DNA of 52,880 nt. Origin: Erysipelotrichaceae bacterium UBA3379 (GTDB lineage Bacteria; Bacillota_I; Bacilli_A; Erysipelotrichales; Coprobacillaceae). Location: the NCBI GenBank assembly GCA_002359025.1, contig DEPZ01000001.1:1-52880 (forward strand). Reading direction: 5' to 3'. The notes under the pieces are model-generated. The model did not search any database, was not told where the DNA came from, and saw only the letters and a program-made list of their open reading frames with translations. This document shows, in pieces, positions 1 through 8,624 of this stretch (position 1 is the stretch's first letter; each line of letters opens with the position of its first letter). Made by a program: the position numbers and the translations under genes.

Positions 1-785
1 ATATTACTTGAAATAGATATAGGAACTTCATAATCTAATAATAGTTTTAAACATGATAAAATATATGAAGCGCTATTATTTTTTTGCTTTTCATTTTTCA
101 TAATATAAGATCTTGTCTCTTCGTTGGCAACAGAACTATCGATTGTCGTGGCAATTGATCTAATTATTTTTCTATTAATTATAATTTTTTTCATAAAATA
201 ATCTAAATTTGTTCCATTAGTTATAATATGAATTTTAATAATATTTTCTTTACAAAAATCGAAAATTTTATCAATAATTAATTCATTAGATATTAAAAGT
301 GGTTCACCACCAAACAAACCTAATTCAATAATTTTATCTGGGTATCTACTTTGGTATTCTTTTATAACACTGAATATTTTTTCTAAGTTTATATCAGATA
401 TGATTCCTTTATTTAAAACTGGATTACATTGTTGATAACAATAAGTACATCTTAAGTTACAGGCATATGTAATGGCCAATATAATTGTTACAATAGATTG
501 ACTTCTATTAATTTCATCTTGATTATATAGTGTTTCTTTCAAAATATTTTCATTCTCAATATTAAAAATGTCTGGGGTAGTAAAATACTTTTTTATAGAA
601 GATGGTATTCGATTATTGTCAATATAATCTTTGTTCAGAACCATACACTTATCCATAAAAGAATTTATGACCAAATAATTCTCGTTGTCATAATTCTTAA
701 TGTATATATTTTCAGGTATTTTAAATTCTTCTATTTTTTCTTCATTAAGGCTATATAATTTATTATTTTCTAAAATACAATTCAT
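1..785 (-). CDS. Radical SAM enzyme, N-terminal 261 codons (C-terminus lies beyond the left window edge); RiPP-maturase-like
   Basis: Not in the supplied ORF track because it has no stop inside the window. Translated by hand from ATG 785-783; the frame stays open to position 3 (checked codon by codon). Contains AITYACNLRCTYCY (CxxxCxxC at Cys109/113/116) and GGEPLL. About 100 aa precede the cluster. RBS GGAAAGGTGA lies upstream. Confidence 0.8.
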   Translation of the reverse strand, partial: MNCILENNKLYSLNEEKIEEFKIPENIYIKNYDNENYLVINSFMDKCMVLNKDYIDNNRIPSSIKKYFTTPDIFNIENENILKETLYNQDEINRSQSIVTIILAITYACNLRCTYCYQQCNPVLNKGIISDINLEKIFSVIKEYQSRYPDKIIELGLFGGEPLLISNELIIDKIFDFCKENIIKIHIITNGTNLDYFMKKIIINRKIIRSIATTIDSSVANEETRSYIMKNEKQKNNSASYILSCLKLLLDYEVPISISSN

Positions 786-816: not shown

Positions 817-855
817 TATAAAAACTCAACTACTTAAAATAGCTGAGTTTTTATA
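817..855 (-). terminator. Intergenic hairpin between the short ORF and the radical SAM gene (possible attenuator/partial terminator)
   Basis: TATAAAAACTCA (817-828) pairs perfectly with TGAGTTTTTATA (844-855). On the minus-strand RNA only, three more pairs including one G-U wobble extend the stem to 15 bp with a 9-nt loop. U-rich sequence follows. Confidence 0.45.
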
Positions 856-864
856 GTTTAATTT

Positions 865-990
865 TTAGTAAAGTCTTGGATGTTCAGCTAACCCACTGAT
901 TTCAAATTTTTCATCATTAATTGAGAAATCTAATGAATCATTACGTTCCATTTCCTCTAATTCTTCTGCTGAAAAAATTACTTTACTCAT
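865..990 (-). CDS. 41-aa acidic small ORF, candidate RiPP precursor peptide
   Basis: ATG 990 to TAA 865 gives MSKVIFSAEELEEMERNDSLDFSINDEKFEISGLAEHPRLY. A G-rich SD (GGGGGGGTGA) sits just upstream. It lies directly 5' of the radical SAM gene on the same strand. Too short for the ORF track. Confidence 0.55.
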   Translation of the reverse strand: MSKVIFSAEELEEMERNDSLDFSINDEKFEISGLAEHPRLY

Positions 991-1020
991 TATTTCACCC
1001 CCCCCAAAAAATATTTTTTA

Positions 1021-1037
1021 TAATACTAAAAGTATTA
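1021..1037. promoter_or_regulatory. Perfect palindrome TAATACT-N3-AGTATTA in the regulator/short-ORF intergenic region (possible regulator box)
   Basis: Read directly: TAATACTAAAAGTATTA, 31-47 nt upstream of the small ORF start. It overlaps TATTAT/TATAAA -10-like hexamers on the minus strand. Confidence 0.3.
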
Positions 1038-1068
1038 CGTTATTTATCTTACCAATTATTAATAATTT

Positions 1069-2019
1069 TTAAATAGCGAAATCGCCATTATTAAAATACA
1101 CTTGATAATCAGCATGATAAACTCTTTGATATTCTTCTAAATTATTTTGGAGTTTGAATACGCTTTTACAGTTATATAAATATTCCTTAGCCTTATCATA
1201 ATTTTTCATCATAGAAAGGCAGCAGGCTGAATTATAGTATAGATAGGGTAAATAAATGAAATTGTTTATGTTTCTACAAAATTGTATTGCTTCTTCGCTA
1301 TGGTTTAATGAATTCAAATAATCTTTATTAACTAGAAACATCGTACTTATATTATATGAGATTTTTGGATATATATAGTAAAAAGTTTCTTCATCAGTAT
1401 AGTTATTGTCTTTATTCTCTAAGTAAAATAATATTTCTTTCCATAATGGATTATGTAAAGAAAAACAACATATAGAATAGTCTATCAAAATTTCTATTTG
1501 TTCCTTTGATAAATTAAATTTATTATATTTTTTTATTGAGTATCCTGATAATTCAAATGCTTGCTCTAATAAACTTTTTGCTACATTAAAGTTGTGATTT
1601 TTTTGAGCTTCAATAATTGCAAGAATATGAGTAGATAATTGTTTGTATTTGTTTAATTCATTTACTTTTTCGTTTGAAATGATTTGTTTATATAATTCTG
1701 TCAATTCAGTGAAATTTCTTTTTAATCTAATGATTTCAAATTGATTATAATATTCATCCAATTCTAATAAAGCTTTTTCTTTACTTAATTGTATAACTTG
1801 ATCAAAACTAATATCTAGTTTTATACAACATAAAACAAGTATGTCTAACTTTATGCTTTCTTTGCCATTGCACATTCTATTAAAATGAGAGTAGTCATAA
1901 ATTCCTTCAATCAATTTAGATTGAGATATTCCCTTATTATATGCTTTATCTAATATAATTTGTAAAGCCTTGCTTTTATCAAAAAATTCATCCATATTTT
2001 TCTTAGCCTCTTCTTTCAT
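1069..2019 (-). CDS. Rgg/RRNPP-type peptide-sensing transcriptional regulator (XRE-like HTH plus helical-repeat domain)
   Basis: 316 aa. The N-terminus GISQSKLIEGIYDYSHFNRMCNGKESIKLDILVLCCIKLDISFDQV matches the Rgg/MutR HTH pattern. The remaining ~240 aa are TPR-like helical repeats. Size and neighbourhood (small peptide genes) fit the family. Confidence 0.7.
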   Translation of the reverse strand: MKEEAKKNMDEFFDKSKALQIILDKAYNKGISQSKLIEGIYDYSHFNRMCNGKESIKLDILVLCCIKLDISFDQVIQLSKEKALLELDEYYNQFEIIRLKRNFTELTELYKQIISNEKVNELNKYKQLSTHILAIIEAQKNHNFNVAKSLLEQAFELSGYSIKKYNKFNLSKEQIEILIDYSICCFSLHNPLWKEILFYLENKDNNYTDEETFYYIYPKISYNISTMFLVNKDYLNSLNHSEEAIQFCRNINNFIYLPYLYYNSACCLSMMKNYDKAKEYLYNCKSVFKLQNNLEEYQRVYHADYQVYFNNGDFAI

Positions 2020-2176: not shown

Positions 2177-2323
2177 TTGAAAATCAAAGTCTTAATTGCT
2201 TTACTACTGATGAGTTCGGTAGTTAGTGGTACAACATTAGTTAATGATAATTTCGTTAATGTATCATCTGAAAAAACAGAATACACAGAAATTAATCCAC
2301 TTATTTTTGATTTTTGGTGGTAA
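2177..2323 (+). CDS. 48-aa secreted pro-peptide, candidate signalling pheromone (C-terminus ...EINPLIFDFWW)
   Basis: TTG start 6 nt after AAGGAGGGG. Product is MKIKVLIALLLMSSVVSGTTLVNDNFVNVSSEKTEYTEINPLIFDFWW, with a Sec-type signal (K-rich n-region, hydrophobic core, SG) and a hydrophobic/aromatic tail. Divergent from the regulator and followed by a strong terminator. Not in the ORF track. Confidence 0.55.
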   Translation: MKIKVLIALLLMSSVVSGTTLVNDNFVNVSSEKTEYTEINPLIFDFWW

Positions 2324-2330
2324 ATCTTCA

Positions 2331-2373
2331 GAAACCTTTTCCTTATTCTATGTGAAAAGGTTTCTAAATTTTT
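2331..2373 (+). terminator. Rho-independent terminator after the pro-peptide gene
   Basis: Perfect 11-bp stem GAAACCTTTTC (2331-2341) / GAAAAGGTTTC (2354-2364), followed by TAAATTTTT. Confidence 0.7.
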
Positions 2374-3028
2374 ACAAAGATTGTAATGTAATTTTAATTT
2401 TATATTTTTTAGGCAAAAATTCTTTAATTAATTCATAATCATATAGAATTTCATTTTCAACTATAATGGTATATCCCCTAATACTATTGTCATGCAATAT
2501 GTCGACCTTACTAATAGCATAATTGATAATACTATTAATATACATATATTCATTTACTAATAAATCAACATAAGCCTCTCTTGAATATTTAATATTTCTA
2601 TATTGCTCTAGATGCTCTTTTTTAATGTTTCCCAAGAATCAACAACCATGTAATTATTAACAACTCTTTTTTTGAAACTAAACCATCAAAATATATTCTT
2701 CCAACTTTAAATGGGTTCAGAAAGTTTGGTTTAAATGTAATTGAATAGCTGTCAGCAATACATTGGCATAAATATTTTAATGAACATAATGATGAATCCT
2801 CATAAAGGTTATGATTCATGAAATCATATAATATATCAACTTTTTATCTATGTTCATAAACCGAAAGTTTTTCCAGTACTTTATTGAAAAAAAGCAATTC
2901 TTCCATCTTTCAAATCCACCATATTTTGATAAGTAATATCTATTTCTTTATCTAATCGCAAGTAAGAAATTTTTTTGTTTTTGTAATTTAGTTGTGTATG
3001 TAGCTACTGACATTTTTATTTCATCCAT
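2372..3028 (-). pseudogene. Decayed gene of unknown function (several frameshifts and an in-frame stop)
   Basis: Track ORFs 2372-2635 and 2622-2819, plus upstream pieces starting at ATG 3028 (MDEIKMSVATYTTKLQKQK...), join into one ~215-aa reading only if frames are switched at A/T homopolymers and one stop is ignored. Confidence 0.45.
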
Positions 3029-3259: not shown

Positions 3260-4502
3260 TTGAAAAGTATTTTGATCAATCTGTTGATATTCAATCAAAT
3301 GAAAAGACTATCTAGTCCATCGCCAAACTTTCTAGATAGTCACTCACGAAAAGAGACATATTTTTATAATGCTCTTTCAAAGAGAATTATATCAGACAAC
3401 GTATCTCCTTTCAAACCAAATTTTAAGAAAGGAGTTTTTATATACCGATAACTCAAAAAGAATTATTGGAAAAAGAAAGAATTATAAACGTAGGGGGTTT
3501 AAAAGCAAAAAAGCAGCAAAATTAGCAAAAGCAGAATTTTTTGAAACAATATAATAATATTTTACCAACTCGTATAAAATTAAATGATTTGATTAAGGAG
3601 TATCATAAAGAAGCTCCCAATCGCATTAAATTATCTACTCTCAAGGCTTATAAGAGATTTAAAAAAATGTCATATCACCTAGTTTTGGTAATCGTTATAT
3701 TGATGATATTACAACATTAGAAATTACACGTTGGATTAATGCTATTTCACAAAATGGATATGATGGCAGAATTTATGGTGAATCATCTACACGTAATATT
3801 TTACTGCACCTGTCTGGTTTATTCACATATGCTGTTGATCATGACTGGTTACAAAAGAATCCATGTCATAAAGTTAAACCACCCAAAGATTCAAATAAGA
3901 TTATAAGAAGACAATCTAGTGAAGAAAACTTCTGGGAAATAGATGAGTATCGCAAATTTATTAATACTGTTGAAGATGAATATAAAAGGGATATTTATGA
4001 ATTTATGTTTCTTACGGGTTTACGTATTGGTGAATTCTGTGCTTTACAATGGAAAGATGTCGATCTTATTAATAATAAATTAAGAATATCTAAATCATTA
4101 AGTGCGATTACATCAAAAATAACGTCACCCAAAACTTCACGTTCAAATAGAACTATTCAGTTACCAGATAGACTGGTAGAAAAATTAAAAAAGCAATATA
4201 TTATTATTTTTCAACAAGATGGATTTAATGATGATTATTATTTATATAAGGATCAAACTTATATCTCTATAGCTACACTTAGAAGATGGTTTAATGAAGA
4301 TGTAGAAAAATCTGGTGTAAAAAGAATAACAGTACATGGACTAAGACATTCTCATGCAAGTTATTTGTTATCAAATCCAATGATTTCAGAATTGTTAATA
4401 GCTGATAGATTAGGGCATAGTGTAGAAATGTTAAGAAGTACGTATGCACATATATATGAAAAAAGTAGAAAAAATCTTATAGATTTTATAGACGAATTAT
4501 AG
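3260..4502 (+). pseudogene. Tyrosine recombinase (phage-type integrase), disrupted
   Basis: The C-terminal catalytic half is intact in 4005-4502 (LTGLRIGEFCAL..., HGLRHSHASYLL, LGHSVEMLRSTYAHIY). The N-terminal arm/core-binding parts (KRRGFKSKKAAKLAKAEF; ITRWINAISQNGY) sit in other frames. Frame switches occur at the T-run 3537-3542 and the A-run 3661-3667, with a probable further one near 3450. An xis-like scrap lies at ~3100-3240. Confidence 0.8.
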
Positions 4503-4836: not shown

Positions 4837-5562
4837 TTAATGAACTATCTTGAATCCAAATCTCGATTCCATTGATAATTTCCCATCATATAAGCACTCC
4901 TTTATAATCGGCAACAAGGTATATTCTTTTTGTTGAATATGTAATGCTTCTCTTGCTAATGGATTCGGGAAAAAATCTGCAAATTGCACACCTAAATTAT
5001 TATCAGACTTAGGAATAAAATTTATTGTGGTTAAATGCTTTTGAAGAGATTCCTTGCTATAAAACAATGTTCCTGTAGCTTTAAGCTGATGAAATAAATT
5101 CTGTAGTGTTGTATTGCTTCCAGAATCTGTGCTTTCTAAATAGACACTACCACATGCATTATTTGAAATAAGGAAGTGGTTATAATTTTCCATTAATAAT
5201 TGTAAAGAAATATAATAAATTTGATTAGTTTCCTCATTTCCATATAATTGCTCAAAATCATCAATGTTAATCGAAACAGCTAAAACATGCAATTCTACTT
5301 TCTTGAATAACTCTTCAATCTTTTGAAAAAACAACTTATATTGCTCTCTTGTTCGCCCTGCAAATTCACCTTTAGCTTTTCTTATATCAATTTCATGTAA
5401 TATTATTTGTTCATTACCAAAGCATTCTTTCTTTATTGATAATAATTCTGGCTTTAGTTTATTCTCATATTCTTCCTTACTAATAGCATATCCTGCTAAT
5501 GTAAAATTTTTGAAATTGGTATTTGGTTTTGATTCATCTAAAAATAAGTAGTATTCATTCAT
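4837..5562 (-). CDS. DUF3800-like protein
   Basis: Start moved to ATG 5562 (MNEYYLFLDES...), which is preceded by AAAGGAGGAATAAT. N-terminal LFLDES and C-terminal GVQFADFF motifs fit DUF3800. Last gene of the XRE-ImmA operon. Confidence 0.65.
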   Translation of the reverse strand: MNEYYLFLDESKPNTNFKNFTLAGYAISKEEYENKLKPELLSIKKECFGNEQIILHEIDIRKAKGEFAGRTREQYKLFFQKIEELFKKVELHVLAVSINIDDFEQLYGNEETNQIYYISLQLLMENYNHFLISNNACGSVYLESTDSGSNTTLQNLFHQLKATGTLFYSKESLQKHLTTINFIPKSDNNLGVQFADFFPNPLAREALHIQQKEYTLLPIIKECLYDGKLSMESRFGFKIVH

Positions 5563-5585
5563 ATTATTCCTCCTTTTTACTTTTG

Positions 5586-6242
5586 CTACCACCATTCATC
5601 TCTTTTACTTTGCATATCATATTCTTCATCAAAATAATCAATTTCTGCAAATTTATTTGGTGCAATCATATCTACAAATTCACTGAATAAAATATTAAGA
5701 CTTTCATCATCTTTTTTATAGTTATATTCATAATTTTTGTTTAATGTTTCTAATTTTTTTATTGCAGCTTCTTCAGATACATTAAAATTTCGTATTATAA
5801 AATCGACTGTAATATTATATCCTCTTTCTATAGCAATATTTATTATTTGATTAGGTATCAAAAGTTGTGCTGCAAAAAAGTTTGCTTCTACTTCCATTTT
5901 TGAATATAATTGTTCATCTATATTTTCGAAACTATGTTTCATAACAATATGCCCTATTTCATGAGTTATTGTCCATCTCTGTCTTGTTTTCAATTGATTA
6001 TCATTATAAAATATTATATATTTATCACCTCTTTTTATGGTTTCACCATCATTACTTCCTAGTTTAGAAGGATCTATGCCATACTTTTGTTTTGCCTTTG
6101 AATATGAACAAAGTGAAATATTATATAATGTTATTCTTTTTAAAAGCTTCTTTAAACTAAAAGGGAACTGTGTTATACCTGCACTTAATAGAAAAATATT
6201 GGCTGTACTAGTTGCTGATTTAAAATCAGGTTTATATATCAT
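5586..6242 (-). CDS. ImmA/IrrE-family (COG2856) zinc metalloprotease
   Basis: HEIGH motif (WTITHEIGHIVMKH). The likely start at 6242 (MIYKPDF) overlaps the XRE stop by 11 nt. Confidence 0.8.
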   Translation of the reverse strand: MIYKPDFKSATSTANIFLLSAGITQFPFSLKKLLKRITLYNISLCSYSKAKQKYGIDPSKLGSNDGETIKRGDKYIIFYNDNQLKTRQRWTITHEIGHIVMKHSFENIDEQLYSKMEVEANFFAAQLLIPNQIINIAIERGYNITVDFIIRNFNVSEEAAIKKLETLNKNYEYNYKKDDESLNILFSEFVDMIAPNKFAEIDYFDEEYDMQSKRDEWW

Positions 6243-6576
6243 CTTCATCGTCCTCATCTTCAAAAATATTATCAAACATAGTTCCTAATATTACAGTAGC
6301 TTTTTTGACTTCTTCTTGATTTAATTTATTTAATCCCCTATGTAATATTTCTATTTCAGATACAGAAGAAACCTCGTTGCCTAACAAATAATCAATTGAA
6401 ACCGAAAATATTGAAGATAACTTCTTTAAAATATCTGAATTAGGAACAACTCCCAAATTCTCCCAATTTGCTACTGTAGCCTTTTTTACATTAAGTTTTC
6501 GTCCTAACTCTTCCAATGTATAATCATTATTTCTTCTCAGTTGCCTTAAACGATTTGAAAAATTTTGATTTGCCAT
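6232..6576 (-). CDS. XRE-family HTH repressor (ImmR-like) with acidic tail
   Basis: LRQLRRNNDYTLEELGRKLNVKKATVANWENLGVVPNSDILKKLSSIFSVSIDYLLG is a canonical Cro/C1 HTH. AAGGAGG RBS. Confidence 0.85.
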   Translation of the reverse strand: MANQNFSNRLRQLRRNNDYTLEELGRKLNVKKATVANWENLGVVPNSDILKKLSSIFSVSIDYLLGNEVSSVSEIEILHRGLNKLNQEEVKKATVILGTMFDNIFEDEDDEDDI

Positions 6577-6649: not shown

Positions 6650-6862
6650 GTTTGTAATTATTTTTCTAGTAGCATACCTTTATTTAAATCATTGTATGCC
6701 ATTTGTATGCCACTTTCAAAGCATATGTCTTAGACTAAATAAAAAAGCATAACTTTCTAACACTCATAAAGTCATCAAATTTCGCTTCATGATTTAGAGA
6801 TATTATGCTTTTATTTTATCTATCAATTTAAGTTTAAAATCAAAATTATCTTGATTCTATCA

Positions 6863-8624
<1,762 letters not shown>

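Follow-up and report, generated by a model that had tools for sequence, protein, structure and literature searches.

The 41-codon open reading frame (ORF) at positions 865..990 (minus strand) of the window, that is, of the whole 52,880-nucleotide stretch of DNA that was analysed, is by comparison with homologous loci a real, conserved gene under purifying selection, and it is quite probably the precursor (A) gene of a ryptide-type radical SAM RiPP operon. The product likely carries a C-C cross-link between Arg39 and Tyr41, as made by RrrB in ryptides. The peptide, from a gut bacterium, is related to the streptococcal ryptides, and the finding extends a known class and opens no new one. The original prediction had proposed a precursor peptide for the adjacent radical SAM enzyme, and this proposal is supported by synteny, by purifying selection, and by a C-terminus that is conserved across the family. 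Its further suggestion, that the product would lie outside the best-known classes, is not supported, since the only strong family match of the enzyme is the ryptide maturase, and the peptide has the 41-residue length of RrrA and the R-x-Y ending of a streptococcal homologue.

The Arg-Tyr cross-link formed by RrrB was reportedly described by Caruso and colleagues in 2019 (J Am Chem Soc 141:16610). Ryptides are represented by the rrr (RRR-subfamily) RaS-RiPP cluster of Streptococcus suis, in which RrrB joins the Arg and the Tyr near the C-terminus of RrrA, a precursor of 41 residues (PMC9389541, PMC7670169, PMC11851443). RrrB rejects Arg-to-Lys and Tyr-to-Phe substrates and accepts N-terminally truncated ones (PMC9389541, PMC7670169). 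Ryptides have been described from streptococci only, with their function uncharacterised (PMC13361665, PMC12445099), and the mature natural product is undefined, even for the prototype (PMC13361665, PMC9389541).

The ORF is present as described in the original prediction, which left the strand unstated; it begins with ATG at position 990, ends at 865, and is translated in the ORF listing as MSKVIFSAEELEEMERNDSLDFSINDEKFEISGLAEHPRLY. Direct reading confirmed that the peptide lacks Cys and Trp and that its N-terminus is acidic, with 10 Asp or Glu among the first 30 residues (E9, E10, E12, E13, E15, D18, D21, D26, E27, and E30). The sole His, Pro, and Tyr of the peptide (H37, P38, and Y41) all lie within the last five residues. 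The leader comprises approximately residues 1-30, with the shared motif F-S-x-E-E-L-x-E-M-E-x-N-D, and the core ends in H-P-R-L-Y. The G-rich Shine-Dalgarno (SD) sequence was likewise found to be real; the coding strand 5′ of the start reads TTTTTTGGGGGGGGTGAAATA-ATG, the ribosome-binding site spans 991..1005 (minus strand), and a canonical GGAGGTG stands at the matching position of the homologous locus L007. The site contains a poly-G tract (998..1005), with 8 G in the window; metagenome contigs that do not differ elsewhere have 6, 7, or 8 G. The tract length also varies in contigs of runs labelled metatranscriptomic, and the spacing from its 3′ end to the ATG is constant; these length differences could reflect slippage-prone variation or a sequencing artefact.

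The length of the ORF is not significant by itself, as the window DNA has a GC content of 23% and small ORFs are common. An antisense ORF of 51 aa, also listed (921..1076), was rejected as a gene because its frame shifts with the length of the poly-G tract and is, hence, not conserved. The 41-codon ORF is lifted above chance by its conservation, namely by its dN/dS, its synonymous bias, and the lack of conservation of the antisense frame. L007, whose enzyme is 79% identical to that of the window, carries a 41-aa ORF at the same position (MSKVVFSVEELNEMEKNDSLDFSINDEKFEISGLADHPRLY). The dN/dS of the peptide ORF against L007 (Nei-Gojobori) is 0.105, and the corresponding values are 0.104 for the enzyme, 0.109 for the regulator, and 0.198 for the transporter. 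Codons 18-41 show nine synonymous changes and a single Glu-to-Asp replacement (dN/dS 0.011); with approximately 19% synonymous changes expected by chance, binomial arithmetic gives P ~3e-6 for at least 9 of 10 changes being synonymous.

Two further lineages were informative. L011, a Coprobacillaceae MAG with an enzyme 60% identical to that of the window, contains the precursor homologue MSVKLSVEEIAEMNKVDQLDFSKNDKNLDDSGMAISPRLY, which ends in ...AISPRLY, and the L007 precursor ends in ...GLADHPRLY. In L009 (enzyme 72% identical), a tblastn search found ...GLADHPRLY followed by a stop codon at the very start of the contig, again with other synonymous codons for Pro and Tyr. Different synonymous codons are used for Pro38 (CCA/CCG/CCT), Arg39 (AGA/AGG/AGA), and Tyr41 (TAC/TAC/TAT) across three lineages. 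The conservation check that had been proposed together with the original prediction was, thus, carried out across homologous loci, and it revealed purifying selection and a C-terminus maintained family-wide; in the L007, L009, and L011 lineages, a disrupted ORF beside a conserved enzyme was not found. L009 had been considered as a locus without a precursor, which was rejected because the tblastn match places the precursor end ~1 kb before the enzyme gene. The intervening stretch (L009 1..1064) is unrelated in sequence and may be an insertion or an assembly join. The sole frameshifted copy of the peptide ORF is found in L012, which is near-identical to L011, lies at a contig end, and is labelled Anaerohalosphaeraceae. 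The frameshift looks like an assembly or consensus problem. The upstream ORFs of L012 and L011 are near-identical despite the differing phylum labels, and mis-binning or a chimeric long-read assembly seems likely.

A public collection (sources include NCBI) lists the exact peptide in 26 index blocks, and the peptide was present in 23 of the 23 contigs read; gene callers in public collections do call the 41-aa ORF. Several contigs with the identical peptide are labelled gut metagenomes, and RNA runs with the same DNA come from chicken or bird gut. A protein search with the peptide returned the window peptide and the L007 variant only, by a word index that misses distant short peptides, and NCBIfam and Pfam profiles gave zero matches to the 41-aa peptide and to the 48-aa ORF discussed below. 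The precursor family was recovered by reading the ORFs beside enzyme homologues.

The radical SAM/SPASM maturase (B gene; 1..785, minus strand) is cut by the window start after the first 261 of its 469 codons, and the full-length 469-aa enzyme was read from the L001 contig (6064..7473). Residues 5-460 match NF040899 (NCBIfam “radical SAM/SPASM ryptide class RiPP maturase”, ryptide_rSAM) with 409.5 bits; the next-best family reaches 80 bits, which leaves NF040899 as the sole strong family match. The score lies below the curated equivalog cut-off of 600 bits, and equivalence of function with RrrB is, therefore, not certified. With the same model, the Streptococcus sp. enzyme (L015) scores 957.6 bits and the nine non-streptococcal relatives tested score 214-392 bits. 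The window enzyme is 44% identical to the L015 enzyme over 439 residues. The CxxxCxxC cysteines (C109, C113, and C116) are invariant in 44 homologues, as are seven C-terminal cysteines (C358, C379, C414, C417, C423, C427, and C439; CX2CX5CX3C spacing), and the enzyme has a TIGR04085 SPASM match. The best full-length PDB matches of the AlphaFold model (pLDDT 91.2, pTM 0.90) are CteB and SuiB, followed by anSME. CteB and SuiB are peptide maturases with an N-terminal recognition (RRE) domain. Judged from its sequence, the enzyme belongs to the clade of RrrB, the ryptide maturase.

Small ORFs around enzyme homologues were read in 31 genome loci and several metagenome contigs. In ~27 of the ~30 loci with usable flanks, an ORF of 34-57 aa that ends in R-[R/L/K]-Y lies beside the enzyme, with the motif located at the very C-terminus or before a tail of 3-6 residues. 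The C-termini include ...NRTRRRY in Streptococcus sp., ...HTHRRY in Butyrivibrio, ...NGHRLY in Faecalibacterium, ...TTNRRY in Fusobacterium, ...NNPRRY in Lachnospiraceae, ...LGGRRY in Bdellovibrionales, ...HASGRLY in a Methanomethylophilaceae MAG, ...SIRKY in Elusimicrobia, and ...LLVRKY in Staphylococcus pseudintermedius. R-x-Y ORFs adjoin the enzyme in loci labelled Oscillospiraceae as well, the range of labels takes in a methanogen-related archaeon, and among the loci read, RRRY was found in the streptococcal member only. The leaders of the family are acidic and share the motif (F/L)-(S/T)-x-E-E-(L/I)-x-x-M-x-x-x-D. When 19 precursors were aligned, only Met1, Arg39, and Tyr41 proved invariant; position 37 is His in the window, Ser in L011, and Asn, Gly, Ala, Pro, or Thr in other members. 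The family of the regulator has varied downstream genes, and the R-x-Y peptide, therefore, travels with the enzyme rather than with the regulator.

The Arg39-Tyr41 cross-link is proposed because the enzyme falls in the RrrB clade and because, after Met1, only Arg39 and Tyr41 are invariant. According to the comparative data, the conserved partner of Tyr is probably the Arg that precedes it by two residues. Of the cross-link partners put forward in the original prediction (His, Arg, Tyr, or aliphatic carbons), Arg and Tyr stand, as they include the invariant pair, and His37, which is Ser in L011, is an unlikely partner. Several other classes were considered and rejected. Sactipeptides and ranthipeptides need a core Cys as the sulfur donor, and the peptide has no Cys; streptide has a Lys...Trp motif, and the peptide has neither this motif nor any Trp; and a His-Arg link of the triceptide type was rejected because His37 is not conserved and the triceptide models score far below their cut-offs.

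In the proposed mechanism, the N-terminal RRE-like domain of the enzyme would bind the acidic leader, and the 5′-deoxyadenosyl radical would take a hydrogen from the side chain of Arg39. The resulting carbon radical would add to the ortho carbon of Tyr41, with an auxiliary Fe-S cluster as the electron acceptor, and the product would be a small C-terminal R-L-Y cyclophane (-2 Da), with a 14-membered ring by our own atom count if Cδ reacts. The leader would be removed by a protease from outside the locus, and the MFS protein would export the product. A gene for a leader peptidase is absent from the locus. Many members of the family have a Gly at a distance of 7-10 residues from the C-terminus, but a cleavage motif is not conserved; the earlier idea of an SG-type cleavage that leaves the 8-mer LAEHPRLY found no support in the locus, given the missing peptidase and motif.

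The Arg carbon that reacts in the RrrB product is given as Cδ in two reviews (PMC7670169, PMC11851443) and as Cγ, with a 16-membered ring, in another (PMC9389541). By our own atom count, an R-x-Y link gives a ring of 14 (Cδ) or 13 (Cγ) members, and an R-x-x-Y link gives 17 (Cδ) or 16 (Cγ). The 16-membered Cγ ring, thus, needs an Arg at the third position before Tyr. In the window peptide, this position is occupied by Pro, so that the ring of the peptide could differ from that of the prototype and only Arg39 could act as the donor.

The full operon was read from longer contigs that carry the identical peptide. A divergent 48-aa ORF is followed by the gene for a PlcR-like regulator, the 41-aa peptide gene, a hairpin, the radical SAM/SPASM enzyme gene, and a gene for a 381-aa MFS transporter that begins within the 3′ end of the enzyme gene. 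The hairpin between the precursor and radical SAM genes (817..855, minus strand) has a U tract and was identified by folding (-19 kcal/mol, z = -8.0); a consensus terminator scan missed it, as the stem has few G-C pairs. Hairpins directly 3′ of the peptide stop codon were also found in L007 and L011 by folding, with differing sequences, and in L009 by eye. The window hairpin is likely an intra-operon terminator or attenuator, and its position suggests an internal terminator through which the precursor mRNA would be held in excess over the enzyme mRNA. At 1021..1037, ~30 nt before the peptide start codon, the sequence forms the palindrome TAATAC-N5-GTATTA. It has one match in the window at a tolerance of at most one mismatch, with 0.6 expected by chance, which is not significant. 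The arms are conserved in L007 with a different spacer; no copy precedes the pheromone ORF, and the loci of related regulators lack the palindrome. It can be regarded as a tentative candidate operator for the regulator.

The regulator gene (1069..2019, minus strand) was assigned by profile matches and fold as PlcR-like, of the RRNPP type (HTH + TPR). The longest ORF encodes 316 aa, and the start is probably at Met9 (position 1995), because most homologues have 308 aa. The match to Pfam RNPP_C (PF18768) reaches 21.6 bits, compared with a gathering score of 26.5, and the TPR matches are also weak; several homologues have a precomputed PF18768 match. A PDB sequence search with the regulator gave no useful match. 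Modelling with AlphaFold (17 homologues; pLDDT 89.7) and a Foldseek search identified PlcR bound to PapR7 and DNA (3u3w_A, TM 0.71/0.79) as the best match, followed by Rgg2, Rgg3, ComR, and PrgX. As modelled, the regulator is an RRNPP-type protein with an HTH domain and a C-terminal TPR-like peptide-binding domain. No significant sequence similarity was found between the regulator and the streptococcal Rgg beside the L015 ryptide enzyme.

The divergent 48-aa ORF (2177..2323, plus strand) is a candidate PapR-like pro-pheromone gene, with a TTG start, AGGAGG 8 nt before it, a signal-peptide-like N-terminus, the C-terminus EYTEINPLIFDFWW, and a hairpin after the stop codon. Counterparts at the same position end in ...EYTEVNPLIFDIWW in L044 and in ...EYTEINPYIFDFW in L007, where the stop codon is lost. 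The ORF follows the PapR pattern and not the SHP pattern. After secretion, the 48-aa pro-peptide would be processed to a hydrophobic fragment from its C-terminus (...NPLIFDFWW), which would be re-imported and bound by the regulator, and transcription would probably start at high cell density. The family to which the regulator belongs is modular; the closest relative of the regulator (86% identical) has only MFS genes downstream. Related regulators were also observed beside a Cys-rich 43-aa candidate RiPP precursor (…GTCSHYCGLYSYCGTQCLIDIFNV; L044 5760..5891) and, in L045, beside a 36-aa candidate precursor (2591..2701) that neighbours an ABC-2 transporter and another kind of radical SAM enzyme, of 358 aa.

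Expression was considered in metatranscriptomes from chicken gut. One 247-nt contig (depth 5) covers 849..1096, i.e., the peptide gene up to the hairpin, and another short low-depth RNA contig spans the pro-pheromone ORF. Two runs labelled metatranscriptomic (X1 and X2) cover the whole region evenly and are uninformative on expression. The chicken-gut contigs hint at transcription of the peptide gene, with DNA carry-over as a possible source.

The comparison with the streptococcal ryptides revealed shared and divergent features. Shared are the 41-residue precursor, whose leader is acidic and whose extreme C-terminus contains both Arg and Tyr, the radical SAM/SPASM maturase directly downstream of the precursor and followed by a transporter gene, and an upstream peptide-sensing RRNPP-type regulator. 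However, three features by which ryptides are currently recognised are absent from the window: the RRR motif (the core is PRLY, with a single Arg, instead of RRRY), a maturase score above the NCBIfam equivalog cut-off, and control by an adjacent shp/rgg pair, the regulator being structurally nearest to PlcR. The candidate pheromone has 48 aa and a signal peptide, compared with ~23 aa for SHP; no relationship between the MFS transporter and its streptococcal counterpart was detected; and the host is a low-GC gut bacterium with a Coprobacillaceae MAG as its closest genome match, not a streptococcus.

Two other systems provide partial parallels. PapR has 48 aa, like the product of the pro-pheromone ORF of the window. 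As in PlcR/PapR of the Bacillus cereus group, the regulator, whose model superposes best on PlcR-PapR7-DNA, adjoins a small ORF with a secretion signal and a conserved hydrophobic C-terminus. The regulator is, however, only 17% identical to PlcR, the pro-peptide gene lies in divergent orientation before the regulator gene and not downstream of it, the target is a RiPP operon, and TAATAC-N5-GTATTA is not a PlcR box. The streptide system (StrA/StrB/StrC; SuiA/SuiB) similarly combines a regulator of the quorum-sensing type, a short precursor, a transporter, and a C-C cyclophane-forming enzyme with RRE, radical SAM, and SPASM domains, and SuiB is among the best structural matches of the window enzyme; the absence of Trp from the peptide and a structure-based identity to SuiB of ~14-15% set the two apart.

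Alternative explanations of the locus differ in what they take the ORF to be. That it is a chance, untranslated frame could be argued from the abundance of small ORFs in the AT-rich window DNA, but the dN/dS of 0.10, the ratio of nine synonymous to one non-synonymous change in the C-terminal 24 codons, the conserved SD, the family-wide homology, and the unconserved antisense frame leave this reading with almost no probability, and the comparative data have effectively refuted it already. The ORF could instead be translated without being a substrate of the enzyme, for example, as a small regulatory or signalling peptide that is merely encoded upstream. The exchange of modules, evident from the quite different downstream genes with which the regulator family occurs, would allow for this arrangement. 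The R-x-Y ORF, however, accompanies the enzyme in distant and differently built loci, including L033, where it lies downstream of the enzyme, and the closest regulator relatives without the enzyme (L042 and L043) also lack the peptide; a non-substrate role is, accordingly, very improbable.

A genuine precursor might also receive a modification that differs from that made by RrrB, such as a three-residue cyclophane between His37 and Arg39 (triceptide type) or an Arg-Tyr link of other connectivity or ring size. The 44% identity to the streptococcal enzyme, the NF040899 score below the cut-off, the core H-P-R-L-Y in place of R-R-R-Y, and the split in the literature on the reacting Arg carbon and ring size are all compatible with such an outcome, and RaS-RiPP enzymes of similar sequence are known to perform different chemistry (PMC9389541). 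On the other hand, position 37 is variable, Arg39 and Tyr41 alone are invariant, and the triceptide maturase models FxsB and YhhB score only 26 and 34.5 bits on the enzyme, compared with cut-offs of 370 and 445. A different modification is, therefore, considered unlikely, and a ryptide-type precursor with an Arg39-Tyr41 cross-link is the preferred reading.

The genomic setting was also characterised. The lysS gene occupies 6863..8353 (minus strand), and a second copy of its last ~177 bp (6843..7019), which is 93% identical and has no mismatch in the first ~99 nt, follows the MFS gene ~2.4 kb outside the window start (L001 9077..9252). L007 shows the same arrangement. These flanking repeats place the RiPP locus on a ~9-kb island integrated in the lysS 3′ end. 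The integrase of the island appears to be split into a 61-aa Arm-DNA-binding fragment (3369..3554, plus strand) and a 165-aa catalytic fragment (4005..4502, plus strand), and the island is probably immobilised by this break. Further genes on the island are an HTH_3 repressor-like gene (6232..6576), an ImmA/Peptidase_M78 gene (5586..6275), and a DUF3800 gene (4837..5595), all on the minus strand; we take the HTH_3 and ImmA/Peptidase_M78 pair to be typical of mobile-element control modules. At 2372..2819 (minus strand), overlapping ORFs of 87 and 65 aa, frameshifted in the window, correspond to one intact 198-aa ORF in L007 (1858..2454). Immediately 5′ of lysS is a T-box leader (8387..8618, minus strand; Rfam RF00230, 98.6 bits). 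T-boxes are an ordinary means of regulating aminoacyl-tRNA synthetase genes in Firmicutes. The loci with the 86% identical regulator (L042 and L043) also lie beside lysS, with only MFS genes downstream, without the peptide or enzyme, and with an AbiH-like gene upstream; the lysS site, thus, seems to hold a family of variable islands. In S. thermophilus, 264 of 265 strains keep the transporter alone (PMC12445099), which is echoed by L042 and L043.

A broader reading, offered tentatively, is that ryptides are a widespread class whose minimal core is a C-terminal R-x-Y. The window peptide, with its single core Arg and with Pro three residues before Tyr, might then give a smaller or differently connected ring than RrrA does, under the control of a PlcR/PapR-type pheromone circuit on the ~9-kb island in lysS.

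The signature for mining in the comparative set is the C-terminal R-x-Y, not RRR, and the current curated models miss all of the non-streptococcal members tested, which score below 600 bits. With one core Arg and one core Tyr, the window peptide is an unambiguous substrate, which could settle which Arg reacts and which ring is formed. The apparent PlcR-like pheromone control on a mobile island offers, in addition, a simple route of induction, by way of a synthetic C-terminal fragment of the pheromone.
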